Source of the DNA: a virus
Lineage: Duplodnaviria; Caudoviricetes
IMG/VR virus record: IMGVR_UViG_3300028370_000001
Coordinates: 1-57,902 of that record
Reading direction: 5' to 3' (one strand)
Length of the DNA: 57,902 nucleotides
Shown: in pieces, positions 16,368 through 36,881 of the stretch
How positions within the stretch are numbered: the first letter of the stretch is position 1
Layout of the letters: each line of letters begins with the position of its first letter
Program-made: the position numbers and the translations under genes
The notes under the pieces: generated by a model
Databases searched by the model: none
The model's input: the letters and a program-made list of their open reading frames with translations, nothing else
What the model was told of the DNA's origin: nothing

Positions 16368-16510
16368 TATTTCTTCCCCTTCTTGGCTGGAGCTTTACCC
16401 ATCTTCTTAGTAGCACCCTTAGCGCAGCCGCTAGTCATACCACCTTTAGCCATACCCTTAGGTTTGGCTTTAGCTTCCTTGTCCATCATTTCTTTCATCT
16501 TCTTGTTCAT
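16367..16510 (-). CDS. 47-aa Lys-rich peptide with MAKGGM motif
   Basis: MNKKMKEMMDKEAKAKPKGMAKGGMT..; RBS AAGGA. Confidence 0.6.
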   Translation of the reverse strand: MNKKMKEMMDKEAKAKPKGMAKGGMTSGCAKGATKKMGKAPAKKGKK

Positions 16511-17082
16511 AGTTTGGTTCCTTTGTTTAAGTATGTGTAGGCTCTATTAATGTGTTCTTTAAACTCTTCAAAAGACATGTCACTCTTAGCTCGGTTACAG
16601 TACTTGCAACAAGGCACACAGTTGTCAGGTGAGTACCCTAGTGAGCTGTCTACGCGGTCAACACCGCTAAACTTAATTGTGTACTTACTCCAGTCTCGAC
16701 CAGGGGAATCTTTTTGTAAGCTATGTGCGTTTTCAAAGTAGTTTAACTCCTGCGGCTCTAACCCGCAGTACGTACAGTCTTGCTGGGTAAGATCGTTAAA
16801 CTCCTCGTAAGACAGTTCAAAGTTAAAACCCCTTTTTACCGCTCCGCTTTTGTAGGAGTGCAGTCTCGAGTTTAACATGCGGCGTTGTTCTTTGGTGTTG
16901 CCCTCTTTGTCTGTACCGCAGCCACAAGTGTTTTGATTTAAGATTGCAGGATATTTCCAGAAACGTCTTTCGTCACCACAAAGACACTCCACAATCCATG
17001 TTTTATTTTTCCCAACAAGCTCAGTCCGTGTAAGCTTAAAACTACCTACAGTCTCACCAGGAACGGCTTGGTTACTTTCCAT
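16507..17082 (-). CDS. HNH-family homing endonuclease
   Basis: CTYCG..GVDRVDSSLGYSPDNCVPCCKYCNRAK; ATG 17082 overlaps upstream stop. Confidence 0.75.
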   Translation of the reverse strand: MESNQAVPGETVGSFKLTRTELVGKNKTWIVECLCGDERRFWKYPAILNQNTCGCGTDKEGNTKEQRRMLNSRLHSYKSGAVKRGFNFELSYEEFNDLTQQDCTYCGLEPQELNYFENAHSLQKDSPGRDWSKYTIKFSGVDRVDSSLGYSPDNCVPCCKYCNRAKSDMSFEEFKEHINRAYTYLNKGTKL

Positions 17083-17354
17083 CAGCAGTCCCAAGCCTTC
17101 CGACTCCAGTAGTTAGCTGAGAGCTTACTAGACTTACCTTTGATACCACCAGAGCGGGCACAGTAACTCTTCTTACGATTTGGTTGGTCCTTCTTGATCG
17201 TCATCTTGGGGTCCCCAAAGCGAACAAGCTTAACTGTATCTCCTTCTTTAGCAAGTACTGCCATCTTCTTGTTAGCTCCTGGCGTCTTCTTTGGTTTGTT
17301 GTAACCGTCAAACTTAACACCCCCTCGGGTGAGCTTATCTGTTCCCTTAGCCAT
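17082..17354 (-). CDS. Small basic protein
   Basis: KLVRFGDP..RKKSYCARS..SANYWSRKAW. Confidence 0.7.
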   Translation of the reverse strand: MAKGTDKLTRGGVKFDGYNKPKKTPGANKKMAVLAKEGDTVKLVRFGDPKMTIKKDQPNRKKSYCARSGGIKGKSSKLSANYWSRKAWDC

Positions 17355-18650: not shown

Positions 18651-18879
18651 CCCACTCTCTTCTCATATTAGGTTTATAGCAGTCGCTGGGCTTGAGGAAT
18701 CCCTCTTTACGCATAGCCCATTCTACGTGGTCAAGGGAGTATGACACCCCAGTGTCTTGACGTATGGCCTCCCGTACGTAGAAGACATCAGACATAGGGA
18801 TATGCACTCTCTCAGGGTTGTCTGAGTCCAGAAGGTTCTTGTAAAACTCTTCAATGACATTCTCACTTTTGTAGTACAT
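18640..18879 (-). CDS. Hypothetical protein, first gene of late arm
   Basis: 79 aa with AGGAAG RBS downstream of promoter. Confidence 0.7.
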   Translation of the reverse strand: MYYKSENVIEEFYKNLLDSDNPERVHIPMSDVFYVREAIRQDTGVSYSLDHVEWAMRKEGFLKPSDCYKPNMRREWDED

Positions 18880-18892
18880 ATTCTTCTTCCTA

Positions 18893-18920
18893 GTTATATT
18901 TATTTAGGGACACTTGTCAA
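18893..18920 (-). promoter_or_regulatory. Sigma70-like late promoter
   Basis: TTGACA-N16-TATAAC, same geometry as capsid promoter. Confidence 0.6.
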
Positions 18921-18960
18921 CCGTTACTTCGTCTTTGATGACAAGAAAGGTTTTACCTCC

Positions 18961-19106
18961 TACCCTAAGTATAAAACCCTAAGTATAAACTAAGAGTCTT
19001 TTATAGTTTAGAGGAGTATACCTAAGTATAAGACCTTAAGTATACCCTGTTATACTACATGTATACTTATAGTATATAATATAGTGCATGTAGCCCCGGT
19101 TGTCAA
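18961..19106 (-). repeat. AT-rich repeat element A with leftward promoter
   Basis: CC(T)TAAGTATA x4; TTGACA-N17-TATATT at 19106-19078. Confidence 0.6.
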
Positions 19107-19441
19107 GGGGTACCCAGGGTTTATTTACCTTAATGTAGCTTTTCCTCTAAGTACTTACCACTAAAGTTCCTTACACTGGTCACTTCACACTCTCATAAGC
19201 CTAGGAGTACCCAGGGTTCTGTCCTTATCTTGTCATTTAGAGGACCAACCTTCCTACACCACATCAAATTACCACACTAATCCCTTGGTTTACACCATAA
19301 AAGACTAACCGTTGTACTACAAGTATATACTACAAGTGTTAACTGCTCCAAAGTACTTACCAATATGTAAAAATACCCCCCGCTGTCAAAGGGCGTATAT
19401 AAATAACGTACGGCCCCCCGGTGGCCCCTGCACCCCTAGCT

Positions 19442-19467
19442 TGAACGTGGTTCATGAACGTGGTTCA
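19442..19467. repeat. Tandem 13-bp palindrome TGAACGTGGTTCA x2
   Basis: Direct reading; operator-like. Confidence 0.75.
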
Positions 19468-19494
19468 CAGGATAAATAACACCATTCTACTAGC

Positions 19495-19507
19495 TAAACC
19501 ATTGATA
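19495..19507. promoter_or_regulatory. IHF consensus site
   Basis: TAA-ACCA-TTGATA matches YAANNNNTTGATW. Confidence 0.45.
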
Positions 19508-19583
19508 TAACACGATAGTTTACACAATTAGTCATCGTGTATGTCCTTTTTGTCACACCTAGTGGGGTATCTGAGTACCGTTG

Positions 19584-19598
19584 TGTTATATCATAACA
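19584..19598. promoter_or_regulatory. Zur box-like palindrome
   Basis: TGTTAT-ATC-ATAACA. Confidence 0.5.
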
Positions 19599-19751
19599 GT
19601 ATGCATCACGTGGGCTAGCGCCATGTAACCATAACGCAACACTGCTGTGCCATTTATACCACATACATCCTCACAGCCACACAGAGGGCCGCTACAAGCC
19701 CTTCTTACGTTTTACCTAGGGTCAGGTCACTAAAACTCAGGTTGACGATTT

Positions 19752-19819
19752 GTTCACCCCTTGTTCTACTTTGTTCACCCCTTGTTCTACTTTGTTCACC
19801 CCTTGTTCTGGTTACGTTC
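19752..19819. promoter_or_regulatory. Array of four alphaproteobacterial LexA boxes within a 21-bp tandem repeat
   Basis: GTTC-N7-GTTC at 19752, 19773, 19794, 19805. Confidence 0.65.
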
Positions 19820-19826
19820 CTCAGCC

Positions 19827-19863
19827 ATGCTCTGAGCGCATAGCTCTTATGCAATCTTAGCAC
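19827..19863. promoter_or_regulatory. Tandem LysR-type (T-N11-A) sites
   Basis: ATGC-N7-GCAT and ATGC-N7-GCAC, 22 bp apart. Confidence 0.35.
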
Positions 19864-20263
19864 TGGTCATTCTGCTGCACAATTCCTAACATACTTAGGG
19901 ATTCTTTACGTGATAAATGTTACAAACGCTGTAATATTTCGTGATTTGCTAGGTAGTCGGTTTCATGACCTTAATGTCTTACGAAACGACCACCGGTAGA
20001 CGGTCCACTTAGTCTCCACGTTCTTTATATTTCCACCCTGTTCAGGGTTCCCTTTGTCCTAGGGGTCGCGCCTCACTAGCGCATGGACACATACAAGGGT
20101 CGCAAGACTTTCCCCTAGGGGTTCACTTGGCCCGCTTCACATTTTCAACAGTGTGCACAGTGTCTGATAGGTGTGATGTAGTGTCACCTGTAAAAAAGTT
20201 TCGGCTAAGACCCGACTACTCAGACAAGCGTTAGCTATAAGCATTTATTGCAATGGGTTCCCC

Positions 20264-20281
20264 TTGTCATAATAGTGTCAA
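20264..20281 (+). promoter_or_regulatory. Pho box-like direct repeat
   Basis: TTGTCAT-AATA-GTGTCAA, 11-bp period. Confidence 0.4.
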
Positions 20282-20551
20282 TTTACCTTTTAAAGGTCGG
20301 TTGCCTGTTATGCTTTGACCCATAGTCGATAGGTGCGCGATAAGTCTAACCTAGGGATATATGCGTGAACGCAACGGGCTAACCCCTAAACGCTTTACGT
20401 GATGAGACAATACAACTAAACACGACTTAATGAGGGGTCCAAAACCCTAACACTGCCCTAACAGGTGGTGTTTTTTACGTTGTGTTTTAGTTGTGTCTTA
20501 TGGAGTGTTACACGGTGTAGCATTCCTTGGATACAACTAAAGGTGTATAAA

Positions 20552-21085
20552 ATGACTACTTTTACTTTCAAGATGGATGATGCTCAGATTATCGCTGGTA
20601 TTAAAAGCGTTGGACAACGTTCTAAGTCTATTCGCGTTGACATCCAGAAACTTGCGGTGTCAATCACACTAAACTGGGCGAAGGCTGGGGCAGCAAATAT
20701 TGCTGCTGAACGTATGACTGACCTACTGAATAATATGGACCCAAGCCATAAACAGAAGCTAGTAAATTGGTGTGACTCTTTTTGCGGGTTTTCTTTGGTG
20801 GATAACAAAGATGGTGAAAAGGTGTTTGCCTATAGCCGAACAAAAATGAGTGAGAAGCAATGGGGTGAGGCGAAAGCTGCCAACCTGTTTGACTTCACAC
20901 CTGACTTGCCGCCTGTTGCCTTCAACTTCAAGGCTAAGTTTGCACAGTTGATTGCTGCTGCTGAAAAGCGTAGCGCCGTGACTGATGCGACGAAGCGTAA
21001 CGCAGATGATGATATCCCTGCTGAGCTGGTGGCCAGTGCTAAGGCACTGCTCGCTGCAATGCCAGAGGTTGAACCTGACTTCTAA
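20552..21085 (+). CDS. Hypothetical early protein (first gene of plus arm)
   Basis: ATG 20552 after AAGGTG; followed by terminator. Confidence 0.75.
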   Translation: MTTFTFKMDDAQIIAGIKSVGQRSKSIRVDIQKLAVSITLNWAKAGAANIAAERMTDLLNNMDPSHKQKLVNWCDSFCGFSLVDNKDGEKVFAYSRTKMSEKQWGEAKAANLFDFTPDLPPVAFNFKAKFAQLIAAAEKRSAVTDATKRNADDDIPAELVASAKALLAAMPEVEPDF

Positions 21086-21110
21086 AGACGGATCAAATGA
21101 TTTAACTGTA

Positions 21111-21145
21111 AGCACCCTGTAAGGTTATACTTATGGGGTGTTTCT
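21111..21145 (+). terminator. Intrinsic terminator
   Basis: AGCACCCTGTAAG-loop-CTTATGGGGTGTT then TTCT. Confidence 0.55.
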
Positions 21146-21153
21146 ATGTCTGG

Positions 21154-21189
21154 TTAAGCGTAGCTTAACTGTAATTAACCTACGGTTAA
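21154..21189. promoter_or_regulatory. Two tandem CtrA boxes
   Basis: TTAA-N7-TTAA at 21154-21168 and 21175-21189. Confidence 0.55.
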
Positions 21190-21362
21190 TGCTAATCATG
21201 GGGAGAAAAACTATGGTCGTCAATAAGGAAGTGTTGTGAAGGTGTATACTATGGTAAACATAGTCACTGGTAAGGTGGTGCTTGAGACCTGCACACTTGA
21301 TGATTGGATACGTCACGAGAATAGAAACGTGATGGAATTGAAACCTAAGAAAGGATAACCCA

Positions 21363-21455
21363 ATGCTACGTACCTTCCTCACTGACACCCTTGGTATTAT
21401 GTCCATTGCTACTATGGTGTATGTACTACCGTTTATAGCTTATGGGTTGCAGTAG
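21363..21455 (+). CDS. 30-aa hydrophobic peptide
   Basis: MLRTFLTDTLGIMSIATMVYVLPFIAYGLQ; RBS AAGGA. Confidence 0.5.
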   Translation: MLRTFLTDTLGIMSIATMVYVLPFIAYGLQ

Positions 21456-21938: not shown

Positions 21939-22045
21939 ACCTAGGGTATATACTCTAAGTATCTACTCTTCTAAACCCTTAAATACCTTAAGTATACTTA
22001 GGGTATAATAAGATACACTAAAAGAAACTTAAGTCAAGGAGAAAG
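21939..22045. repeat. AT-rich repeat element B
   Basis: Homologous to 28139-28262; leftward TTGACT-N16-TATCTT. Confidence 0.7.
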
Positions 22046-22047
22046 TT

Positions 22048-22443
22048 ATGCTAGAGTTTGTGCTCTTTGCTATCGACGACGGACACAACTTACACAAGCG
22101 CAAGAAGTTTATGCACTACGTGGATACTCTCCGTGCCATGGGTAAAGCATCTACGGTGCACCTTTGTGTTGGTAAGTATAAGGGGAATCTTGAAGGCTCT
22201 TACCTTATGCTCTCAAAAGACTATGACAACCACATACAAGGGCGTGAGTATGTCAAGTATCAAGAGAGTGTACTCAGGGTACCTGGTGACACTCGACAGC
22301 CCTGTGTGCTTGAGTTCTCTGATGGAAGTTCTATCGTAGCTGGAGGTATGTCACAAGTGTCCCCTGAAGCAGCAATGAAACTTGATAGTTGGACCTACGT
22401 AGAGGAGACAGGTAAGTACTTTACCTGTGGTTCCTTTGTTTAG
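22048..22443 (+). CDS. Hypothetical protein
   Basis: RBS AAGGAG. Confidence 0.75.
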   Translation: MLEFVLFAIDDGHNLHKRKKFMHYVDTLRAMGKASTVHLCVGKYKGNLEGSYLMLSKDYDNHIQGREYVKYQESVLRVPGDTRQPCVLEFSDGSSIVAGGMSQVSPEAAMKLDSWTYVEETGKYFTCGSFV

Positions 22444-22657
22444 TGTGGGTGACAGGGTACAGTGTGGAGATGGCAATGAAGTATTCACAGTCACTGCTGT
22501 TACTGACGCTCCACCCCGGGTAAGCTTAGGTGGTACCCGCGACCATTGGTATCCCTCACGTATATTCACTCTAGTAACCCCTGTTGCTCCTGTCAAGCCT
22601 AAACTAACAGGTATGGCTCAGTTCCTAAAGGATACGGAGGATAAATATGTCACGTAA
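22427..22657 (+). CDS. Small SH3/KOW-like protein, paralog of 28266..28475
   Basis: FSVGDRV; C-terminal KPKLTGMAQFLKDTE. Confidence 0.6.
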   Translation: MVPLFSVGDRVQCGDGNEVFTVTAVTDAPPRVSLGGTRDHWYPSRIFTLVTPVAPVKPKLTGMAQFLKDTEDKYVT

Positions 22658-22952
22658 AGTACTAGGTATCACTGCTCACTTCCGTAGACAAGACGGTAAA
22701 CCAGAGCTTGATATGGAGAAGATCAACCCTGACTGGTCCTACGCCCTTGATAATCCCCGGAGTACCCTATGTAGCTCCTCCTTAAACACACTCCTAGAGA
22801 CAGGAAAAGGATTATCAAGAGCCTTTACATGGTCATCTACTCCTCAAGGGAGGGGGTACTGGTCTCGTCTCTGTGAAAACGGTGACGGGTGTGCTATCCT
22901 CTCGGAGGAAGACAAGGAGTATACCCGCTATCTCATGAGGGAGCACACCTAA
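22647..22952 (+). CDS. Hypothetical protein
   Basis: RBS GGAGG; AFTWSSTPQGRGYW. Confidence 0.7.
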   Translation: MSRKVLGITAHFRRQDGKPELDMEKINPDWSYALDNPRSTLCSSSLNTLLETGKGLSRAFTWSSTPQGRGYWSRLCENGDGCAILSEEDKEYTRYLMREHT

Positions 22953-22997
22953 TGAATTACAATGAGTTTATGCGTAAGCTAGACGGAAGGAAATCAA

Positions 22998-23954
22998 ATG
23001 ACACTACTAATCGTACGACGGAGACGCCTCGGGCACTCGACTTGCAAGGCATTATCAGGTTTGCTATCAGACTTGGGCACTCCGAACAAAGTTTGGCGCA
23101 ACGACCAAACGTTCCCGACCTCCGAGAGGCTAGCTTCTGGGCAGGGTTTGACGGGTATCGTGCGTTGGGGGTGTACGGCGACGGTACCACGATCTTCTAC
23201 TGCTCGGGTGCCTGTTATAAACTTAGCCTCGGGGATACACCAAGTGAACAACAAGACCCAGTTCCTCCTGAAGCTACAAGAGAGTATGCTGGATCAGACG
23301 GGCTTGCTTCCCGTGTTGACTAGTATGAACGTATCTATGGGTGCAGGTTCCGGTGGGACACAAGTGACAGATGGCAACCAACAGTGGGTAGTGAGACCCC
23401 ACCAGCACAGCCAAGGGAGGAACCTAGAGGTGTTAACTCAATCGCAACTGAGCACGAGACTCGCACAAGGGAGTCTGAACGGGCACTATGCGAGACCCTT
23501 AATCGAGAAGAAAGCAGAGTACAGGGTTTACGTGGTGAATGGGAGGGTTGTGAACGTAGCTCAGAAGACCCCTGGTGATCCCTCTTCAGTAGCATGGAAC
23601 GTGGCTCAAGGTGGGAGGTTTGACAACCTACGCTGGGGTGACTGGCCTATGAAGGTGGTTGACCTTGCTTGTCGTGTCTTCCCTCACACAGGGTTGAACA
23701 TCACAGGTATTGACATCATGGTTGACCACGATGATGAGGCGTGGTTCATCGAGGCTAACTCCGCCCCCTCACTGCCCTTCAACTCCGATGGGTCCACTAC
23801 CTACCGCCAAGAGTGTATTGCAAAAGCGATACACTACACACTGACAGTTAACAAGGACATGATTGATGCCGAAACAAACAACGGGTGGCGGGGCTACGTA
23901 CATCCAGCAATCTGGTCAACGACGAGAGAAAGCGAAGCAAGGGTTCAAAGCTAA
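22998..23954 (+). CDS. ATP-grasp ligase (RimK-like)
   Basis: EYRVYV, WNVAQGG, GIDIM, FIEANSAP. Confidence 0.85.
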   Translation: MTLLIVRRRRLGHSTCKALSGLLSDLGTPNKVWRNDQTFPTSERLASGQGLTGIVRWGCTATVPRSSTARVPVINLASGIHQVNNKTQFLLKLQESMLDQTGLLPVLTSMNVSMGAGSGGTQVTDGNQQWVVRPHQHSQGRNLEVLTQSQLSTRLAQGSLNGHYARPLIEKKAEYRVYVVNGRVVNVAQKTPGDPSSVAWNVAQGGRFDNLRWGDWPMKVVDLACRVFPHTGLNITGIDIMVDHDDEAWFIEANSAPSLPFNSDGSTTYRQECIAKAIHYTLTVNKDMIDAETNNGWRGYVHPAIWSTTRESEARVQS

Positions 23955-24339
23955 CCCTCGGGTCTTTGTCTACGGAACACTCAAGGAAGGGTACGGTAAC
24001 AACCGTTTGCTTTCTCACTCGAAGTTCCTTGGCGCTGCTCAAAGTGTCGGTAACTTCGTGCTTGGTAACGTAGGTTTTCCCTATGCTTTCCCTTCTGACG
24101 CAGTGCCAGAGCAGTACAAAAAGCTTTGCTTCCCTGTGGTGGGTGAGCTTTATGAGGCTGACAGTGTAGAATCTTTCCTCAGCCTTGACTTCCTAGAGGG
24201 TTACCCCTCTCACTACGACAGGCGTATCACAATGTTTGACAATGACGTCAACGCTTGGATGTACGTTCAACCTGACTGGTACAACGCACGGTATTGTGAT
24301 GCGTGTACCTTAGAGAATGGAGTTTGGTCATGGCCTTGA
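23866..24339 (+). CDS. Gamma-glutamylcyclotransferase (AIG2-like)
   Basis: VFVYGTLK..N, GELYE, LDFLEGYPSHYDR; start uncertain, overlaps upstream gene by ~90 nt. Confidence 0.85.
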   Translation: MPKQTTGGGATYIQQSGQRREKAKQGFKANPRVFVYGTLKEGYGNNRLLSHSKFLGAAQSVGNFVLGNVGFPYAFPSDAVPEQYKKLCFPVVGELYEADSVESFLSLDFLEGYPSHYDRRITMFDNDVNAWMYVQPDWYNARYCDACTLENGVWSWP

Positions 24340-25205
24340 CACTAGACCGGAGCGGAAGCTTCCCTCGTGTTGCTACAAAACGTAAGACAAAAGTTTCTGT
24401 TGGCTTCGAGTGGGAGGTACCAGCAGACATAGAGGAACCAGAGTGTACCTGTTGTGAGGAAGGATACATAGACGAGGATGGTAATCGAGAGGAATACTGT
24501 TCATACTGTTGCGGGGAAGACGGCTCTAGGGTAGACCTCAACCGTGTGACAAAAGACTTCATTGAGACACACGGTTTCCGTACTCACATTGAGTGCGGCG
24601 GTACAGAGTTTGCATCTCCTGTGTTTGGTAATATCACAACAGCACGTAGGGTTGCTGGTCTCCTTAAAGGTGTGGCCTTACAGGACCGTGCCCTTGGCCC
24701 AGAGGTGGCTGACTACAATGCCTGCGGTATACACGTTCACACAGGACACACTGACTGGAACAAAGGGGTTGGTTATGAGTACTCTACTGACGTAGAGTCT
24801 GTCTATGCGCAGGTTGTCTCTATGCTAAACCGTAAGAGTTCTGCTGCTTTTGTGCTGGAGTTTTCTGGGCGGGAGAATGGTAACACACATTACCTTACTC
24901 AAGCTGTGTCTTCTTGCTGGGACTATACTGAGGGTGTTACCACACCAACGAGAGAGCAGCTCTCCTACATGAGATGTATGAAAATGGTTCGTCCCAATTG
25001 TTTTGGAAGAATAGGCACTGTTGAGTATCGTCTGTGGGATGCTGCTGAAGACAGGTTGATCCCTGCTATTGAATTTGCCCATGCCTGCACGACCTTCATC
25101 ACTCGACGTAAGGATATCCCTTACCTCAAAGAGTTTAAACTGTGGCTTGACAGGCAGTCAGGGTACAAAGTTTTGAAACAAGACAACGCTTGGCGTTTAC
25201 TCTAA
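24330..25205 (+). CDS. Amidoligase (COOH-NH2 ligase) with Cys-rich insertion
   Basis: GFEWE, EFASP, CGIHVH, TVEYR. Confidence 0.8.
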   Translation: MALTLDRSGSFPRVATKRKTKVSVGFEWEVPADIEEPECTCCEEGYIDEDGNREEYCSYCCGEDGSRVDLNRVTKDFIETHGFRTHIECGGTEFASPVFGNITTARRVAGLLKGVALQDRALGPEVADYNACGIHVHTGHTDWNKGVGYEYSTDVESVYAQVVSMLNRKSSAAFVLEFSGRENGNTHYLTQAVSSCWDYTEGVTTPTREQLSYMRCMKMVRPNCFGRIGTVEYRLWDAAEDRLIPAIEFAHACTTFITRRKDIPYLKEFKLWLDRQSGYKVLKQDNAWRLL

Positions 25206-25215
25206 GGAAAACCAC

Positions 25216-26502
25216 ATGACCTATGTAACACTCAAACTCGATAACTGCTTCCTCGTGTCAACAGTAAGGGATGACTGGGTACGGATTGATGGCTCACCCA
25301 TTGCACCATACACTGATCGTTGGTTTCAGGACCCGGCGTTCATTGCCTCTCTTGCGACCAACACTTGGGGCTCTGTTATAGCTTTCGTAAAGAAGAACGA
25401 AGATGAACTAAGAGCGGGCATCTACACGGGATACTTTATCTCTGACCTGCTATCCACCCCGGAAGAGGTTCTCTCTAAGCCGGTGGTCAAAGTAAACCTA
25501 GGAAATATAAGGGACTCTACTTCGGTGCTCTTCACAGAACCTCAGGGGGGTGCAAAACCGTATGTACAGTATGATGGTTTCTCCAAGCAACCTAACTTTC
25601 CTCTGACAAAGAGGAGCACTGCGGTCTTCTTAAACGTATACTCCTCAGCCTACGTACGGGGTTTGAACAGTACCATGACAGCCGTTCGTACCCCTTCTCA
25701 GGTTATGAACTACACGTATCGTCCTGACTACAAGTTCATGGCTATGCCTAAGGAAAAGACAGAGTGTTTCTTTGGTCTTGAGCTGGAGGTTAACTCAAGG
25801 ATTCCTTGGGACGATGTCTACCGCACAATGACAGAGGTCTTCCCTGTCCAAGAACCATTCATCTTTGCTAAGTCTGACTCCAGTATTAGCGGAGATTTTC
25901 TTAACAGTTACGAGATTGTCTCACACCCTATGTCACCCCGGCGTATGCGGGCCGAGTTCAGAATCCTGTTTACCAAACTTGAGAGACTCCTTAAGGAGAA
26001 GAACATGGTATGGGAAGAGAACTTTGACATGGTAACTAAGAGTACAGGTATACACGTCCATGTCTCTAAGACAGCGTTCACTCCTTTGTCTCGGACACAC
26101 ATGAAGAAGTTCATGCTCTTATGGAACACTTCAGGCTCGACGGTCTCCTCATTCACGTCTCAACTTGCCTGCCGTGAGACTAAAGGCAACCACTACATCA
26201 AACCTGCTGAGAGTTACCGTGGTCGTTCCCTTGCTTGGATGCTTCGGGAAGGTAAGAATAGTGAGCGTTACGCAGCCTGTAACGAGACACGGGAAACTGT
26301 TGAGGTCCGTGTCTTTCGTGGTCAACCTTGTCTCAAAGCTGTGTGTCACGCTATCGACACAACAGAAGCTATGCTCAAGTTTACTGAGCAGGCGTCGATG
26401 TCTCAACTGAACCGTCGCTTCCCTACCGCTTTCAAGTCTTGGTTGGGTAAACAGAACAAGAACTCTTATCGTTCCTTGAAGGAGACTCTCAAATGTGCTT
26501 AA
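25216..26502 (+). CDS. Second amidoligase
   Basis: FGLELE, KSDSSI, EIVSHP, TGIHVHVS, RY..N, TVEVRVFRG. Confidence 0.85.
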   Translation: MTYVTLKLDNCFLVSTVRDDWVRIDGSPIAPYTDRWFQDPAFIASLATNTWGSVIAFVKKNEDELRAGIYTGYFISDLLSTPEEVLSKPVVKVNLGNIRDSTSVLFTEPQGGAKPYVQYDGFSKQPNFPLTKRSTAVFLNVYSSAYVRGLNSTMTAVRTPSQVMNYTYRPDYKFMAMPKEKTECFFGLELEVNSRIPWDDVYRTMTEVFPVQEPFIFAKSDSSISGDFLNSYEIVSHPMSPRRMRAEFRILFTKLERLLKEKNMVWEENFDMVTKSTGIHVHVSKTAFTPLSRTHMKKFMLLWNTSGSTVSSFTSQLACRETKGNHYIKPAESYRGRSLAWMLREGKNSERYAACNETRETVEVRVFRGQPCLKAVCHAIDTTEAMLKFTEQASMSQLNRRFPTAFKSWLGKQNKNSYRSLKETLKCA

Positions 26503-27500
26503 TCATAACACGAGAACCTAACGTCACTCTTGACAAAGTGAAGTTTGACACAGCTGTGTTGAACAACCCCGATGGCTGGGGTATCTCTGTACCTGACATG
26601 GAGGGACAGCTCTACACTACACGGAGTGTCACTACTGACAAGGAAGAACTCTATGATCTCTTGCACGGAGAGTTCAAGGGTGACCGCCTACTCCTTCACC
26701 TCCGGTACACTACCGCTGGTGACACAGTGTTACGTAACTCTCACCCCTTCCCTGTGCTTGAAATGGGTACGCATGGTGTTGACATGCGTGTAGCACACAA
26801 TGGGACGCTCACTAAGTGGTCTCCTCCCGTTGCTGGGGCAGGTAGCTGGGAGTCTGACACTCGTCGCTTTGTACGAGGCTATGTGCGTCCCCTTATGGAG
26901 CGTATGATTAGGGGGCACTCCAGTGAGGACGTTCTGTCTGACCCCTTCGTCGATACTTTACTCGACAACCAGCTCACCAGTGCGTCTGTCCTTGCGTTCA
27001 TTGATGGGTATGGCAACACAAGCGTCGTTAATGCTAAGGGTAACGGTGGTTTCACTGACGATGAAGGGACCTACTTTAGCAACAAGTACTCCCATGACCC
27101 AGGCCACCGTGTGCCTACCCCTGTGACTCACGGAGGTTCGTACAAGCCTATGGGAAAGAAGACTGGGACGACTACTACTACGGGTCGTCCCGCTACTGGG
27201 ACGAAGGCTACTGTGGCCAAGAAGTACTTCACTGATTGCGTCACTCAATCCTTTATGGAGAAGTATGAGGTGGATGACCCAGCTGATCTTGCTCTAATGT
27301 CGGATGAGACTATCCAAGTACTCGTAGAGGATGAGCCTGAAGATGCTATCCTTCTTATCAAAGAACTCTTGGCTCTGCACTATCGTGAGTGTCGTGCTGT
27401 CACCTCTCTGGTAAACAATGGAGCACTTAAAGATAAGCAGATCAAAGACTTACAAGACAAACTTAATGTAAAGGCGGTGCTCTCATGCCCAACCTCCTAA
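26493..27500 (+). CDS. Class II glutamine amidotransferase
   Basis: N-terminal MC, NPDGWG, HLRYTT, NSHPF, AHNGTL, SDT. Confidence 0.9.
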   Translation: MCLIITREPNVTLDKVKFDTAVLNNPDGWGISVPDMEGQLYTTRSVTTDKEELYDLLHGEFKGDRLLLHLRYTTAGDTVLRNSHPFPVLEMGTHGVDMRVAHNGTLTKWSPPVAGAGSWESDTRRFVRGYVRPLMERMIRGHSSEDVLSDPFVDTLLDNQLTSASVLAFIDGYGNTSVVNAKGNGGFTDDEGTYFSNKYSHDPGHRVPTPVTHGGSYKPMGKKTGTTTTTGRPATGTKATVAKKYFTDCVTQSFMEKYEVDDPADLALMSDETIQVLVEDEPEDAILLIKELLALHYRECRAVTSLVNNGALKDKQIKDLQDKLNVKAVLSCPTS

Positions 27501-28144: not shown

Positions 28145-28262
28145 GGTATATACTCTAGGCACTATACCCTGAGTGTTATACTCTTCTAAACCTTTAAATA
28201 CTTAGGGTATATACTTAAGGTATAATAAGATAGCAGACTTCTTTTGTAAGTCAAGGAGAAAA
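28139..28262. repeat. AT-rich repeat element C
   Basis: Homologous to element B; leftward TTGACT-N16-TATCTT. Confidence 0.7.
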
Positions 28263-28891: not shown

Positions 28892-29989
28892 ATGAAGTAT
28901 GTCAAAGAGTACACAGCTAACGGTAAGAAAGTATGGCGGTTCAACTGCCCAAAGGATGTAGCTGCTGCTGGGGTTACCAAGTCTCAGACCTTCGAGGATG
29001 GACGCATAGCTCGCTTTGAGTTACCACGGTTAGTCCTCCTCGTTGGACAGTACCGCAAGGGTGACATCAAGGAAGGCACGGTGGGTGTGCACTCTCTCAT
29101 GGTTCACCTGCTCAACCACTATTTACGTACTGATTACTTCAGGCAGCTGGCTGGTTCCTCTCAGAAACAATACGAGTCTGTCTTAGGATTATGTCTCTCC
29201 ACTAGCGTCGGCAGCAAGACCTTTGGTGACATCAAGGTGACAGAGGTAGACGCTAAGCTATGCCGTGACCTCTACACTAAGTGGACCGAGCAAGGGTCTG
29301 TCTCCACAGCTAACACCAAGGCACGTATCTTGTCAGTGTTGTTGAACTACGCAGTGAGCATTGAGCTACTCGTTAACAACCCAATGGCTAAGGTACGGAA
29401 GCTGAAGCATGAACCTACCACACGTATATGGACACAAGGAGAGGTAGAGAAGTTGCTTGAGGTAGGGTACCAAGGGTTTGCCCTAAGGAACATCGCCCTG
29501 CTAGCTCACATGTGCTATGAGTACGCACAGAGGCCTGTTGATATCTCCCTTCTTACATGGGAGCAGGTAGACTTTGATACTAACTGTATCACTATACGTC
29601 AGACTAAGCGTGGTGCTACTGTCCACCTCCCTATTGAAGAACCACTGTGTACCATGCTGTTAACACAACAAGACGAGTGGGGTTTCCAAAAGTATGTCGT
29701 CCCTCACCAGACGCCAAGAGGTTCAGTGTACCACCCGATGAGCAGAGCAGAGATGAACACACAGTTTGTTACTCTCCGGGACACAGCAGGACTGCACCCC
29801 GATCTACAACTGGGCCTGCTACGTAAGACCGCTATATCGGAGTTGGTTCAGGCTGGAGTTGACGCGGTAGGTATCATGCAAGTTACAGGGCATAAGAGCA
29901 TACAGAGTTTAAACCCCTACATGGTCAACACCTTAAAAGGTTCTTCGTCAGCGTTGTCAGCAAGGACAGGTAGGAAGACACCTAAGTAA
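28892..29989 (+). CDS. int: Tyrosine recombinase/integrase
   Basis: QRPVDI (R), QTKRG (K), LLRKT, VTGHKS..NPY. Confidence 0.85.
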   Translation: MKYVKEYTANGKKVWRFNCPKDVAAAGVTKSQTFEDGRIARFELPRLVLLVGQYRKGDIKEGTVGVHSLMVHLLNHYLRTDYFRQLAGSSQKQYESVLGLCLSTSVGSKTFGDIKVTEVDAKLCRDLYTKWTEQGSVSTANTKARILSVLLNYAVSIELLVNNPMAKVRKLKHEPTTRIWTQGEVEKLLEVGYQGFALRNIALLAHMCYEYAQRPVDISLLTWEQVDFDTNCITIRQTKRGATVHLPIEEPLCTMLLTQQDEWGFQKYVVPHQTPRGSVYHPMSRAEMNTQFVTLRDTAGLHPDLQLGLLRKTAISELVQAGVDAVGIMQVTGHKSIQSLNPYMVNTLKGSSSALSARTGRKTPK

Positions 29990-30985: not shown

Positions 30986-31394
30986 TGTAAAAGATGAAGC
31001 TCTGGAAGTATTCATGTTAAATAATACAACAGAAGACACACCCTGCCGCAGCCTTATAACAAAAGCATTCAAAGAGGGATGGAAGGCACGTAAGAAATCT
31101 GAGTACGAGGAAACAGAGTACATCCGCAAGGATACCTACGGCGCAGTGGTTGCTGACCTTGAGGAAGTAAGGGAAGAGTTAACCTGGGAATATGACACAG
31201 GTCACCTTATAAGATCAGCCGCAGACCGTATCACCGAACAGGCGGCTGAGATTGAACGGCTGCGCGATGCTTTGAACCGCATCGTTTCAGCGTCTGATTA
31301 TTACTGTAGAGAAAACACCGATCATGAAGCGATGACACTCGCCTATGCCCACAAATCGACAGGACACATCGCCCGCGCCGGTCTCAAGGAGTAA
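30978..31394 (+). CDS. Hypothetical protein
   Basis: RBS AAGGAG; AADRI..EIERLR coiled coil. Confidence 0.65.
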   Translation: MTNVKDEALEVFMLNNTTEDTPCRSLITKAFKEGWKARKKSEYEETEYIRKDTYGAVVADLEEVREELTWEYDTGHLIRSAADRITEQAAEIERLRDALNRIVSASDYYCRENTDHEAMTLAYAHKSTGHIARAGLKE

Positions 31395-31395
31395 T

Positions 31396-33978
31396 ATGAA
31401 ACAAAGCACACCCCCAATTAAGACACACCGTACCTGCCCCTCGTGTGGTGCAGGGGGTAGCTACTCAGTGTGGGCTAACGGTGCTGGCTATTGCCACTCC
31501 TGTGACAAGTCCTCACGAGGCGAAGCTACCCATGAGAAACAAGTAGAACGAAAGGAACCAAGCCCTATGACAACAGACCTAACCCTTAAGTACCACCCTA
31601 TGCGAGGCGTAGATGGTGACGTAGAGAAGTTCTACGGGGTACAGACAGGTATGTCTGAGAGTGGTGACCCAGTCACCAGAGTATACCCTTACCCTCACCG
31701 ACCCAAGACACGTATCCTACCCAAAGACTTCTCTAAGAACTATGGGTTTACCAACGATTACCTCTTTGGTATGGACAAGTTTAACGCAGGTAGCTCTAAG
31801 TACCTGACGATTACTGAAGGGGAGGAAGATGCTCTTGCTGCTTACCAACTGTTAGGCAAGACTTTCCCTGTTGTATCCCTACCTTCTGCTGGTTCAGTCA
31901 AGTCTGTCCTCCAGAATAAAGAAGCATACAACTACATCAAAGCTTTCTCTGCTATCATCCTCGCTACTGATAACGACGAGGCAGGTAACAAGAGTGCAGA
32001 GATTCTCCAACGTGCATTCCCAGGACGGTGCTACCGTGTGAACATGTCTACCCACAAGGATGCCTCGGCATACCTACAGGCTGGTCACGGTTCAGACTTC
32101 AAGTATGCTTGGATCAATCGTCAGAAGTACGTACCTGACAATGTGTTCAACACGACAGACCAGTTCGAGAAGATTATCCGTGACGACAAAGGCTCTATGT
32201 ATATCCCAACAGGTATCAAAGACCTTGACTCACGGTTGCTTGGGCTTATGCAGGGTCACTTTACTGTGTTTACTGCACCAGAGGGCGTTGGCAAGCAACT
32301 ACCGAACACGACCCTTATACCTACACCTACTGGGTTTCAGACTATGGGAGGGTTAAAATTGGGGGATGAGGTTGTAGGTGGTGATGGTAAACCAACTAAA
32401 ATTACGTACATCACGGAGACACAGCACAACGTACCTTGCTTTGAGCTTACGTTTTCTGACGGCACAACGCAGGTAGCTGGTGGCCCACACAGGTGGGGTG
32501 TTGTTAACACTGACGGCAAGTATAAGGTTAAGACTACTGACGAGATTATTGAGGAAGGCGTAACCCGTGGAGACGGTGTAGCATTGTACTCTGTCCCTAT
32601 CTGTCAACCTCTTGTCCTGCCTACTGCTGATCTAGTCCTCGATCCTTACTCATTTGGACTTTGGCTTGGGGATGGAAACTCCTGCAGCCGTGGTATTACA
32701 GTGGGGTACACTGACCGAGAAGTCTTTGAGACTCTTACTGATGTTGAAAGATGTGTAGAGTATCCAGCAGGTGTGACTTACTACTTGAATACACTAAGCC
32801 ATAAAGACCTTGTGTCTGAAGGAGTCTTAAAGAATAAACATATCCCAGAGGACTACCTTCGGGGTTCTATTGAACAACGTACCCGTCTATTGCACGGTAT
32901 GATGGATAGCGACGGGGGCACACAGGGTTCTGGTTGTGAGTTCTATACTTCAAGTGCCCAGCTACGGGATGACTTCCTTGAGCTTGCCCGTAGTCTTGGC
33001 TACAAGTGTCGAGTACGTTCTAAGCAGAGTAAACTGTACGGTGTCCCTAAGAAGATAGCATACACTGTTTGGTTCTTAGCTCACGGTGATCGACCCATCT
33101 TTAAGTATCCCCGTAAACAGGATAAGGTTGTCTACTGTAAGACACGACGAGCAACACACAAGACTATCCGAAGCATTGTACCTGTGGAATCAGTACCTTC
33201 ACGTTGCTTGACAGTTGACAATGAGGATCACTTGTTCCTCTGTGGTGAGGCCTATACTGTGACGCATAACACAGAGCTTATGCGTAAGCTGGAGTATAAC
33301 CTCTTGGCTAACCACCCTACTATTCCTATCGCTATCATGCACCTTGAGGAAACAAAGAAGCGTAGTCTCCTAGGTCTTGCATCATATTTCTTAAACAAAG
33401 ATGTGACACTACAGGACACAGAGACAATCACTAACGATAGGGGTGACGAGGAGATTGTATACCTCCCGAGTTACAAGGGTACCTCAGAGGACGAAGTGCT
33501 ACAGGCTATCAAAGAGTTTACTGATCGTGAAAACTTCTATCAGTTTACCCTAAGTGTAGACGATGACCCTATGTCTATCCTCGAACAGATCAGGTACTTT
33601 GCTGAGGTGTGTGGCTGTCGGTACGTGTTCTTTGAACCTATCCAAGACCTAGCCTACTCACGGCAGAGTGAATCAAGTATCGAGGGATGGCTCAGTGAGC
33701 TGTCTACTAAGCTTGCCCGTCTTGCCACTGAGCTAGGGGTAGGTATCGTGTCTATTGCTCACGAGAATGACGATGGGCAGATACGTGACTGCCGTATGAT
33801 TGGTAAGCGAGCCAGTGTTGTCATCAAGTTAAGCCGTGATAAGCTTGCCGCTGATGAGGAGACTAAGAACACAACACAGCTTCTTGTAGATAAGAACCGA
33901 CCCGTCGGGCCAACAGGCTTCGGAGGTATGCTAGAATTTCACCCCGAATCTTTCACACTTTCAGAAAAGGAATTTTAG
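31396..33978 (+). CDS. T7 gp4-like primase-helicase (intein-containing)
   Basis: Zn finger CPSCG..YCHSC, TOPRIM ITEGEEDA/DNDEAG, Walker A APEGVGK|T, KNR; RBS AAGGAG. Confidence 0.95.
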   Translation: MKQSTPPIKTHRTCPSCGAGGSYSVWANGAGYCHSCDKSSRGEATHEKQVERKEPSPMTTDLTLKYHPMRGVDGDVEKFYGVQTGMSESGDPVTRVYPYPHRPKTRILPKDFSKNYGFTNDYLFGMDKFNAGSSKYLTITEGEEDALAAYQLLGKTFPVVSLPSAGSVKSVLQNKEAYNYIKAFSAIILATDNDEAGNKSAEILQRAFPGRCYRVNMSTHKDASAYLQAGHGSDFKYAWINRQKYVPDNVFNTTDQFEKIIRDDKGSMYIPTGIKDLDSRLLGLMQGHFTVFTAPEGVGKQLPNTTLIPTPTGFQTMGGLKLGDEVVGGDGKPTKITYITETQHNVPCFELTFSDGTTQVAGGPHRWGVVNTDGKYKVKTTDEIIEEGVTRGDGVALYSVPICQPLVLPTADLVLDPYSFGLWLGDGNSCSRGITVGYTDREVFETLTDVERCVEYPAGVTYYLNTLSHKDLVSEGVLKNKHIPEDYLRGSIEQRTRLLHGMMDSDGGTQGSGCEFYTSSAQLRDDFLELARSLGYKCRVRSKQSKLYGVPKKIAYTVWFLAHGDRPIFKYPRKQDKVVYCKTRRATHKTIRSIVPVESVPSRCLTVDNEDHLFLCGEAYTVTHNTELMRKLEYNLLANHPTIPIAIMHLEETKKRSLLGLASYFLNKDVTLQDTETITNDRGDEEIVYLPSYKGTSEDEVLQAIKEFTDRENFYQFTLSVDDDPMSILEQIRYFAEVCGCRYVFFEPIQDLAYSRQSESSIEGWLSELSTKLARLATELGVGIVSIAHENDDGQIRDCRMIGKRASVVIKLSRDKLAADEETKNTTQLLVDKNRPVGPTGFGGMLEFHPESFTLSEKEF
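32296..33270 (+). mobile_element. Class 3 intein (325 aa) with LAGLIDADG endonuclease
   Basis: GK|QLP..HRW..RCLTV..VTHN|T; FGLWLGDG and LHGMMDSDGG motifs. Confidence 0.93.
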
Positions 33979-34668: not shown

Positions 34669-36881
34669 ATGACCCTAGTAGTAGTCTCGGATTGCGAAAC
34701 AGATGGGCTAGACCCTGACAACCTGTGGTGTGTGGTCAATAAAGAACTTGGAGCTAAGTCCTACAAAACGTGGGACTTCAACTCAGGGTATGAAACCTTC
34801 ATTGACTACGCAAAGACAGTAGACCGCTGGGTATTCCACAACGGTATAAGCTATGATGGTCCCGTGATAAACAAACTACTCGGGTCCACCGTGATTGATC
34901 CCTTTAAAATCTGTGATACTTTTGTTGTGTCCCGCCTTGTTAACTACATGGGGTACAACGGTCACGGACTAGATGAGATCGGTATCTCCCTTGGGCAGCC
35001 TAAGACAGTCTTCAATGACTGGGAGAAGTACACACCAGAGATGTTGTCCTACTGTAAGGATGACGTAGACCTAGGCACAAAGATATACAATAAGTACAAG
35101 AAGTATATCGACGACCCTGCTTGGGCTATGTCTATGGAGACTGAGCACCGGATGGCTATGTTGTGTAAGAAGATGCACGACAATGGTTTCAAGTTCAACC
35201 TTCAGTTAGCTAACGAAGTCCTACCTCAGATACAAGACAGACTTGACGAACTTAGCGCAGGGATGCAACGTGCTTTCCCACCTGAGCTTAAGGAGGTTCA
35301 CCGTATCCAGTACCGTACTAAGGCAGACGGTGAGCTCTACGCTACCACAGCTAACGCTATGGATAACTTCCCTAAGACTGTGATCGACGGTGATGAGCTG
35401 GTGTGTTTCGATTGGGTATCGTTTAACCCTGGGTCACACCTGGATCGTATCGATAAACTCTGGGATGCAGGGTGGAGCCCTACTGAGAAGTCTAAGGCAC
35501 ACTATAAGTTCTCTCAACGGGGTGCAGTAGGTGACAAGTGGGGTAAGAAAGTCCTTACTCAGGAGACGTATGACGCTAAGAAGGAAGAGTTCGAACACTA
35601 CGGCTGGACGGTAAGCGATGAGAACCTTGAGACACTCCCAAGCACAGCCCCTCAGGGTGCTCGTGACCTTGCTGAGTGGTTGTGCCTCAACGGTAGACTA
35701 AAGCCACTAGAGGAGCGTATCAGGGAGTGTGAGAGGGACGGACGTATCCGCACTAACTTCTGGCATATCGGGGCATGGACCCACCGTATGTCCCACTCGT
35801 CTCCTAACCTAGCTAATATCTCCTCACCATTTCAGGGGGAAGTAGTCACTGCTGTTGACCTTGTTAAGGAGAGGTTCGACGGTCAACTACGTGCTATGTT
35901 TACAGTGGACGAAGGCAACTGGCTAGTAGGTACAGACGCTGAGTCTATCCAGCTACGTATCCTAGCTCACTACCTAAAGAACGACGAGTACGTTAAGGCT
36001 ATCACTGAAGGGAGGAAAGAAGATGGAACAGATATCCACAACGTTAACCGTGCAGCACTCGGACTTGAGCACCTTACTCGGGACCACGCCAAAACTTTTA
36101 TCTTAAAGCTAGGATAACTTAGGGGTAACCCTTCGATTAAAACCTCGTGAACTCAGGGGAGGCCTCTAGTAGGTAATCCTGAGCCAAGCTAAGTAAACAA
36201 AAAGCTATTGATTACTTAGAAGGTGCAACGACTATCGAAAGCACATCGAAAGATGGAAGTTAGTAGAGTACACCCAAGTGGGTGGAAGCGCGAGGCTCCT
36301 GCTGTAAGCAGGATGATGATATAGTCTAGTCTATGCGGCGACGTGTAGCAGTTCATAAGAGAACGGGCTGAGCTTAACGAACTCAGTTGAATAAAAACGA
36401 TGCTTGGCTACTCGGAGCAGGAAACGGCAAGGTCGCTAGAATCTTGGGCTGTACAACACGACAGGCGAAGGGGGCGGTGGATTCTTTCGTTGACCGTACC
36501 AAGGGACTTGGGAAACTTAAATCAGGACTTATCCGTAGGGATGCAGCCCGAGGTTTCTTTGAAGGTTTCGACGGTAGAAAAGTTATCTGTCCCTCAGAGT
36601 ACTTAATGTTAGCAGGTTATCTGCAGAATGGAGAGGCTGTAATCATGAAGAGAGCCAACTGGCTATGGGACAAGTGGTGCACAGAGGATGGCTTGAACTT
36701 CAAGCAAGTCAATCTTGTTCACGATGAATTTCAAACAGAAGTTTGTGGGACGTATGAAGAGGCAGAAAGAGTAGGTTACCTGCAGTGTAAATCTCTTGTA
36801 GCTACAGGAGAAGAACTCGGATTGTTTTGCCCCATGTCTGGTGAGACACGTATAGGGAGGTCTTGGCTTGAAACCCACTGA
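34669..36881 (+). CDS. polA: DNA polymerase family A, spliced (exons 34669-36103 and 36400-36881; 638 aa)
   Basis: Exo DCETDGL; motif A DAESIQLR; motif B KTFI-Y-AWLLGAG restored by splicing; motif C VHDE. Confidence 0.93.
36104..36399 (+). ncRNA. Group I intron without ORF (296 nt)
   Basis: 5' exon ends in U, intron ends in G; P1 TTATCT/GGATAA; core AACTCAGGG/AATCCTGAG; P7 GACTA/TAGTC. Confidence 0.92.

Follow-up and report, generated by a model that had tools for sequence, protein, structure and literature searches.

The subject of this work is the right half of the divergent, gene-free control region (positions 18880..20551; 1,672 bp, with no convincing open reading frame (ORF) in the ORF lists) of IMG/VR virus record IMGVR_UViG_3300028370_000001, which was analysed over its whole length of 57,902 bp (the window), is classed as complete, and represents a complete HMO-2011-type podophage from lake water. 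This stretch carries an array of GTTC-N7-GTTC boxes, a motif that is enriched with strict N7 spacing and at clustered positions across the phage family and that has the same form as the boxes in host lexA promoters. We consider host LexA the probable, if by no means certain, binder of the array. More tentatively, LexA aided by IHF could be the main brake on the early promoter of HMO-2011-type phages, in which case silence or lysis would be set by the DNA-damage (ultraviolet, UV) state of SAR116, Roseobacter and related cells. The LexA binding, the repression of the early promoter and the biological outcome are what we infer from these observations.

An earlier description made from the letters alone (the sequence-only reading) had presented this stretch as a control region with a cluster of boxes for different host transcription factors, possibly acting as a sponge for regulators, a sensor of host state or an entry ratchet. 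It is indeed a real and dense control region, and all the motifs named in that description are present at the positions it gave. Comparison with relatives sustained two of the eight motif classes. What stands of the overall interpretation is the LexA-type array, the IHF-type site, the conservation of the adjoining C-run and the lack of a recognisable repressor; the Zur, CtrA, PhoB and LysR labels and the tandem palindrome are not supported, and the sponge and the entry ratchet are speculation.

The array (19749..19819, plus strand) consists of seven (T)GTTC half-sites in helical phase, starting at 19752, 19763, 19773, 19784, 19794, 19805 and 19816 (spacing 11, 10, 11, 10, 11 and 11 bp), which make up four boxes starting at 19752, 19773, 19794 and 19805. 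The hexamer TTGACG (19741-19746, plus strand) abuts it. All four GTTC-N7-GTTC boxes of the window, both TTAA-N7-TTAA boxes and the single TGTTAT-N3-ATAACA palindrome lie in or beside this one gene-free region, so the clustering claimed for the operators is unusual; an excess over background is not seen in the single genome (57.9 kb), where the counts are within the expectation from dinucleotide shuffles (TTAA-N7-TTAA: 2, expected 1.03; IHF consensus: 2, expected 1.43; the palindrome, with at most one mismatch: 1, expected 0.19). What points to a non-chance origin of some of the motifs comes from the relatives and not from the window alone.

The comparison comprised 95 non-redundant homologous regions, oriented on a conserved C-rich element (19369..19440 in the window, see below) and freed of near-duplicates. 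Set 1 (n = 27) was drawn from a pool of 70 loci (67 contigs, the window, CRP-9 and CRP-13), 17 of which were dropped for having less than 500 bp to the right of the element, the other 53 yielding 27 regions, scanned from +0 to +1300 from the element. Set 2 (n = 68) is independent and was assembled with the HMO-2011-proper form of the element, 28 of its 121 loci being dropped as too short. The exact GTTC-N7-GTTC box was found in 42 of the 95 regions, its density there being 20-110 times that in the remainder of these contigs. Set 1 contains 29 boxes in 14 of 27 regions (34.6 kb), compared to 2 in the 265 kb remainder of the same loci and to 1.1 expected from shuffles; set 2 contains 46 boxes in 28 of 68 regions, compared to 13 in 528 kb and to a shuffle mean of 2.4 (maximum 7). 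The spacing is strict: N7 accounts for 29 boxes in set 1, with at most 5 for each other spacing from N3 to N12, and for 46 in set 2, with 0-3 for the others. Among 136 tetramer-N7-tetramer classes in set 1, GAAC-N7-GAAC (the same box read on the other strand) ranks first by total and ties for first by the number of regions, whereas the GTTC tetramer alone is not enriched (7.1 per kb vs 7.8). Positions are clustered as well, with 32 of the 46 boxes of set 2 at +300 to +399. Ten whole genomes gave 12 boxes in 13 kb of control regions vs 11 in 520 kb elsewhere. The apparent depletion of boxes outside the control regions (2 in 265 kb) was not relied upon; in the 520 kb of the whole genomes N7 occurs 11 times and the other spacings 12-37 times. 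The presence of boxes in related phages and their enrichment over shuffled sequence, on which the sequence-only reading had staked its proposal, were thus found for GTTC-N7-GTTC in both sets.

Seven or more sequence contexts without relation to one another contain the boxes, and so do two subgroups whose replication modules differ. Some boxes are paired at distances of 29-47 bp, often with opposed orientations, and others form series of three or four that have half-sites in common. L160, the closest relative found, has a mosaic structure: over window positions 19255-19441 it is 95% identical, and immediately to the right it is unrelated; the BLAST-matched stretch 19752-19949 is only 69% identical, yet the array is retained, as nine GTTC half-sites at 10-11-bp spacing with spacers different from those of the window.

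GTTCN7GTTC is given as the Caulobacter SOS box in Table 1 of PMC9578287 and in an excerpt of a preprint (10.1101/2025.01.26.634973). For the host side, lexA was sampled in 41 genomes of a family of Rhodobacteraceae type, including the Marivivens-labelled G007 (matches in 38), plus the Rhodovulum-labelled G006, and 30 upstream regions were examined (29 of 30 family loci extracted and one further). GAAC-N7-GAAC is present in 29 of these 30, many of them having three half-sites 11 bp apart. Phage and host operators thus share the N7 direct-repeat core, the T that precedes each GTTC and series of three or more half-sites 11 bp apart, as does the Caulobacter box in its core, and the proposed match to alphaproteobacterial LexA is borne out in core, strict spacing and family-wide recurrence. 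The non-core positions of the phage sites outscore single-GTTC controls in 10,000 of 10,000 resamplings. The phage spacers differ from those of host lexA promoters in being A/T-rich and without the host 'TA' after the first half-site, and the seven half-sites of the window exceed the number in any sampled host lexA promoter.

Promoter-like elements accompany the boxes: TATA[AT][AT], resembling a -10 element, is found no more than 30 nt left of the first box in 11 of 42 regions, where 3.1 would be expected, and TA[CT]ACCC no more than 40 nt left of it in 10 of 35 (0.7 expected). This fits operators lying just downstream of a rightward start. The window has neither element beside its first box, only the TTGACG hexamer adjoining the array. 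The arrangement we propose, with a layout that relatives share, reads from left to right as leftward promoter-like repeats, the C-rich element of about 72 bp, an IHF-type bending site some tens of bp further on and, 200-400 bp from the C-rich element, a set of operators that would vary from phage to phage and of which the seven TGTTC half-sites with their four boxes would be the main ones in the window phage. Host LexA dimers would line up along a single face of the helix at the array, next to the rightward early transcription start or across it, and early expression would then follow the SOS state of the host; in members with an integrase the choice between lysis and lysogeny could follow it too. 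The premise that an integrase is present without a recognisable repressor agrees with what was found in the window, which encodes a tyrosine integrase (28892-29989) and whose early ORFs, where scanned, yielded no repressor-like domain.

Several observations weigh against control by host LexA. The mean non-core score of the phage sites is -3.9 bits against a host matrix built from lexA promoters only, and because it is negative the likeness is limited to the core and the flanking T. Three of the four window boxes derive from one 21-bp tandem repeat in three copies (19749-19811), and genome-wide the count of 4 compares with 2.09 expected, 17 of 100 dinucleotide shuffles reaching 4. No exact box was found in 53 of the 95 regions, and the isolates CRP-13, CRP-1, HMO-2011 and CRP-345 are without one. 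Nor do the boxes track the integrase: among the whole genomes, 3 of the 5 with boxes and 4 of the 5 without them have a homologue of it (13 of 36 at the level of records), and the boxes cannot therefore be read simply as a device for lysogeny. A scan with an Escherichia coli-type consensus found no rightward sigma-70-like promoter in the gene-free region, and the reading of TTGACG-17-TCTACT as a promoter is weak. As to the host of the lake phage, the genome-bin labels attached to capsid-gene matches are inconsistent (Blastopirellula, Bacteroidetes, Rhodovulum and Marivivens). Finally, iterons and the sites of OmpR-family regulators also typically consist of direct repeats in helical phase.

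This last point leads to the explanation that the array and the other repeats bind a phage-encoded protein, as origin iterons or as operators of a phage regulator, and that the likeness to LexA sites is a coincidence of a short core. We regard it as unlikely. The three 21-bp direct repeats, two helical turns apart, do resemble the iterons of known origins (lambda ori, plasmid iterons), the relatives each have repeats of their own at this place (GTTTAA-N3-4-TTAAAC, TTGTGATCACAA, AGGTTGCA and others), and the cumulative GC skew reaches its minimum at 19-20 kb. That minimum coincides with the switch in gene orientation and alone is no pointer to an origin, and the conserved unit is the pair of half-sites spaced by 11 bp, not the 21-mer. 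The N7 spacing is strict and dimer-like even where boxes are 29-47 bp apart and out of helical phase, and the recurrence of the 4+7+4 core in so many unrelated contexts, and in two subgroups that differ in their replication modules, also speaks against this explanation. Unlike in iteron origins, no initiator gene with a matching distribution was found: over the ten whole genomes no window ORF (at least 40 aa) combines presence in each of the four other genomes that have boxes with absence from the five that have none, which weakens the idea of a dedicated phage binder, the sample being small.

The C-rich element to the left of the array (AAAAA..CCCC..CTGTCA..TATA..C-run..TGGCCC..GC..CCCC; 19369..19440, plus strand) had been noted as a C-run block that may mark the genome end. 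It is not a local oddity, as it is conserved in primary sequence in at least 187 viral contigs: a degenerate pattern matched 67 (about 3 expected at random by our own estimate) and the HMO-2011-form variant at least 120 further ones. Across the relatives compared it is the sole piece of the control region conserved at the DNA level. In an alignment of 32 non-redundant copies AAAA, CCCC, CTGTCA and TATA are invariant; a C-run (in some a G-run) comes next, followed by TGGCCC-N-GC. A hairpin or small RNA was rejected, since no base pair is predicted in the 32-sequence alignment and the conservation is therefore one of primary sequence; a G-quadruplex role of the C-run is weakened by the G-run that several relatives have instead. 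The TA[CT]ACCC string mentioned above (TATACCCC) is itself part of the element in many copies. About 20-60 bp to its left many relatives (e.g. L105, L106 and L137) have an inverted repeat, GTTAACCAC-N9-13-GTGGTTAAC, of which the window retains one arm only (GTGTTAAC, 19336-19343). The element always accompanies the HMO-2011-type capsid module, while the replication modules vary, and an excerpt of PMC8528129 agrees that this capsid module is combined with differing replication modules. This distribution hints at an involvement of the element in packaging, genome ends or late functions and not in the work of the replication proteins.

An exact match to the IHF consensus (WATCAANNNNTTR; 19495-19507, minus strand) lies some 55 bp rightward of the C-rich element. 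With this consensus, sites were found in 13 of 27 regions of set 1 (4.7 expected, maximum 10 in 200 shuffles) and in 33 of 68 regions of set 2 (10.9 expected, maximum 17). They lie at +91 to +132 in 7 of 27 regions, the window site being at +126. The proposed IHF site is thus supported by a roughly threefold enrichment and a conserved distance.

The element and the IHF site together suggest another explanation, namely that the region serves packaging, with the C-rich element as the site of terminase recognition or cutting, IHF as the bending protein and the repeats as binding sites of the small terminase; part of 19300-19880 could then be a direct terminal repeat and the first DNA to enter the cell. 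We hold this, too, to be rather improbable. Its arguments are the fixed distance between the IHF consensus and the element and the inheritance of the element with the capsid and packaging module across replication modules (the window capsid protein is 79-81% identical to those of CRP-9 and CRP-13, but the primase-helicase only 31-33%). The arrangement is also reminiscent of cos of phage lambda, which comprises cosN and cosB with terminase sites and the IHF site I1: in both cases a conserved core comes first, an IHF-type site next and phage-specific repeats last, close to the arm with the packaging genes. It differs from lambda cos in that the terminase genes are about 4-5 kb away. The exact SOS-box form of the repeats is left unexplained by a packaging role. 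A 195-aa ORF between the packaging and lysis genes (16507-17094, minus strand) weakly resembles HNH endonucleases (E = 0.0035, short of the family cut-off); in some phages cohesive-end packaging goes along with HNH genes next to the terminase genes. For the large terminase the match is to the T4-type N-terminal family, which is uninformative on cohesive ends.

Read depth bears on the same question. The public runs with window DNA, all lake water metagenomes, consist of assembled contigs, which cannot show the ends of molecules; four were examined. In the high-depth runs X8 and X9 the depth of a unitig over 19441-19778 is 2.9 and 2.5 times that of the sequence on either side, and in the low-depth runs X10 and X11 contigs over about 19290-19690 are at 2.2-2.8 times the depth. 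Such raised depth, which would favour a terminal repeat, could equally well come from a module shared among co-occurring mosaic phages, as it coincides with branch points. Variant sequences branch at 19441, 19531, 19890, 21070 and 21483, and the first three of these favour, or at least allow, the shared module. The terminal repeats of four 'DTR' (direct terminal repeat) contigs, the window and three relatives, measure 107-127 bp and in 3 of 4 lie away from the C-rich element; the repeat of the window, 127 bp, has the size of an assembler overlap, and all are consistent with overlaps of k-mer length.

Returning to LexA as the binder, the sequence-only reading had considered that the boxes might titrate host repressors, in our version mainly LexA, as the phage genome multiplies, switching on the SOS regulon for the benefit of the phage. 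The window phage has four LexA-type boxes per genome and the relatives up to four, and copy number multiplied by four boxes could, by inference only, approach the size of the repressor pool; excerpts of PMC12753301 report induction of SOS genes in another marine alphaproteobacterium infected by an unrelated pelagiphage. Most relatives, on the other hand, have one or two boxes or none, the boxes stand at a fixed place beside promoter-like elements, as operators do, and the other factors proposed to be sponged found no support. Titration is therefore quite improbable in our judgement.

A chance origin of every box, as matches to short consensus sequences within non-coding DNA rich in repeats, is hardly credible: the window counts are within shuffle expectation and the motifs were selected in hindsight from the many short consensus sequences available, but two independent sets of relatives show an N7-specific excess (29 vs 1.1 and 46 vs 2.4 expected), so chance is contradicted for the LexA-type and IHF-type sites and stands for the PhoB-, LysR- and CtrA-like ones.

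The remaining boxes fared as follows. The perfect palindrome TGTTATATCATAACA (TGTTAT-ATC-ATAACA, 19584-19598) had been likened to a Zur site. Paracoccus Zur sites, as given in Table 7 of PMC5387054, are 15-bp sequences (GTAATGTAATAACAT) with abutting half-sites and no 3-5-bp gap; the gapped window palindrome is unlike this geometry, and for an alphaproteobacterial host the Zur label finds no support, as far as that table goes. Its core GTTAT-N3-ATAAC was found in 6 of 27 regions of set 1 (0.19 expected), recurring at -41 to -55 and at +195 to +216, and in 2 of 68 regions of set 2 only, so that the palindrome recurs in one subgroup only. The TTAA-N7-TTAA pair (21154 and 21175), proposed to be CtrA boxes, consists of the arms of two perfect 17-bp palindromes (GTTAAGC-GTA-GCTTAAC and ATTAACC-TAC-GGTTAAT), carried on a 42-bp insertion (21150..21191) that L160 lacks in the alignment, its flanks being about 95% identical there; in runs X8 and X9, 21151-21237 is missing from a minor form of the contig. 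While most of the listed motifs do lie in the gene-free stretch, this pair sits beyond the first plus-arm gene. CtrA-type matches in the relatives of set 1 mostly belong to CTTAAGTA repeats on the left side of the C-rich element. The pho-box-like TGTCA-N6-TGTCA (20265..20280, plus strand), which partly overlaps a dispersed 17-mer repeat (copies at 20045 and 20255), was found in 1 of 27 regions, the window alone, and in 2 of 68, and a PhoB site finds no support in this. The tandem palindrome (TGAACGTGGTTCA twice, 19442-19467, plus strand, copies 100% identical) is specific to the window (1 of 27 regions) and is replaced by unrelated sequence in L160. The palindrome ATGC-N7-GCAT at 19827 and its degenerate copy ATGC-N7-GCAC 22 bp away at 19849 (together 19827..19863) had been assigned to LysR-type regulators, a motif class too degenerate to support such a label; L160 retains the first copy with its spacer changed, and the motif otherwise occurs in 3 of 27 and 3 of 68 regions, near the shuffle expectation.

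Further left in the control region are repeats of CCTAAGTATA(A), reading TACTTARGG on the minus strand (18962..19048), which we regard as candidate promoters or operators of the phage. The genome has 9 copies of TACTTARGG (1.73 expected; none of 100 shuffles reaches 9), at 18963-19042 (minus strand), 19892 (plus), 21986-22003, 28199-28220 (plus) and 31584 (minus), 8 of the 9 being intergenic. Those in the control region and at 28199/28212 are oriented with local transcription, while 21986/21995 form an inverted pair; the related CTTAAGTA repeats occupy the left half of the control regions of relatives. A leftward sigma-70-like promoter, TTGACA-17-TATATT (19078..19106, minus strand), is predicted from a consensus match only (11/12). 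To the right of the array, a 60-bp block about 90% identical in L160 (19890..19949, plus strand) is a candidate rightward promoter region; it holds CATACTTAGGG, the rightward TACTTARGG, and CTTTACGTGAT, which is found again at 20393. From about 19950 to 20551 no match was found in any relative fetched. The stretch 19900-20480 folds better than shuffles (z = -2.9) and ends in a terminator-like hairpin of 9 pairs followed by a T-run (20449..20478, plus strand), 74 bp before the first plus-arm start codon, and this untranslated stretch could be a leader or a non-coding early RNA. An Rfam scan of 18700-21400 gave chance-level matches only, all far under the gathering scores, and blastn of 18800-21300 against phage records gave no match. 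The gaps between annotated genes at the same junction in CRP-9, CRP-13, CRP-1, HMO-2011 and CRP-345 measure about 0.5-1.25 kb (about 0.9-1.25 kb in four of them). Three of these isolates (CRP-1, L085; HMO-2011, L086; CRP-345, L087) have a conserved stretch about 150-250 bp before the first plus-arm gene, with small hairpins recognised by eye, whose stems differ yet stay paired (ggtatcgaagatacc, gtaatcgtagattac and gcaatcttagattgc) and which may be a small structured RNA.

The control region separates two arms. Leftward genes run from 18879 through lysis, packaging and structural genes, wrapping round to 47930, and rightward genes (early and replication) start at 20552. The first of the latter (20552..21085, plus strand) encodes a 177-aa protein of phrog_1448, function unknown, for which no relatives were found in viral contigs and only four weak tblastn hits in phage records. 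Membership of the HMO-2011-type group finds confirmation in the capsid and packaging module, the family-A DNA polymerase split into two ORFs (34669-36117 and 36387-36881) and the divergent two-arm genome, of 57,902 bp in a group with genomes of about 55 kb; the portal, large terminase, ribonucleotide reductase, thymidylate synthase and tyrosine integrase also fit. The capsid protein is 70-81% identical to those of isolates, and the hosts of the cultured relatives listed are all SAR116 or Roseobacter strains. The nearest relatives of the primase-helicase are those of an oyster-associated metagenomic phage (51%), CRP-4 (46%) and Lentibacter phage ICBM2 (42%). This protein (877 aa, 31345-33978) has an insert between its Toprim and DnaB-like parts that matches homing-endonuclease/LAGLIDADG families and looks like an intein. 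Elsewhere in the early arm (22048-27500) SAM-lyase-like, ATP-grasp, gamma-glutamyl cyclotransferase-like and class-II glutamine amidotransferase-like proteins are encoded consecutively and may constitute a cluster for anti-restriction or modification. Within a 689-aa minus-strand ORF (51441-53510) a 33-bp sequence is repeated in tandem (3.6 copies, 98% identity, 52441-52559).

Direct use of host LexA in a phage switch has precedents in CTXphi, Bacillus phage GIL01 and the tum gene of coliphage 186, all temperate systems with SOS operators in the phage control region, GIL01 being without a classical CI-type repressor. The group studied here differs from them in that its boxes are equally found in relatives with and without an integrase, in the direct-repeat operator of alphaproteobacterial form, and in its members being abundant aquatic podophages. 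No published statement of LexA-type boxes in this phage group was found in a literature search, supplements excluded; PMC9038755 does not mention LexA, and the HMO-2011-group papers searched mention neither intergenic regions nor promoters.

The comparison also illustrates how lists of motifs from a single genome can mislead, and the C-rich element with its IHF site provides a handle for locating the packaging site or the genome ends of the group. HMO-2011-type phages are among the most abundant marine groups, are also found in lakes and infect dominant marine alphaproteobacteria, and their regulation is undescribed. An SOS operator could explain how integrase-bearing members without a recognisable repressor keep silent, and, conserved in the family, it would constitute a testable link from sunlight and DNA damage to phage activity in surface waters.

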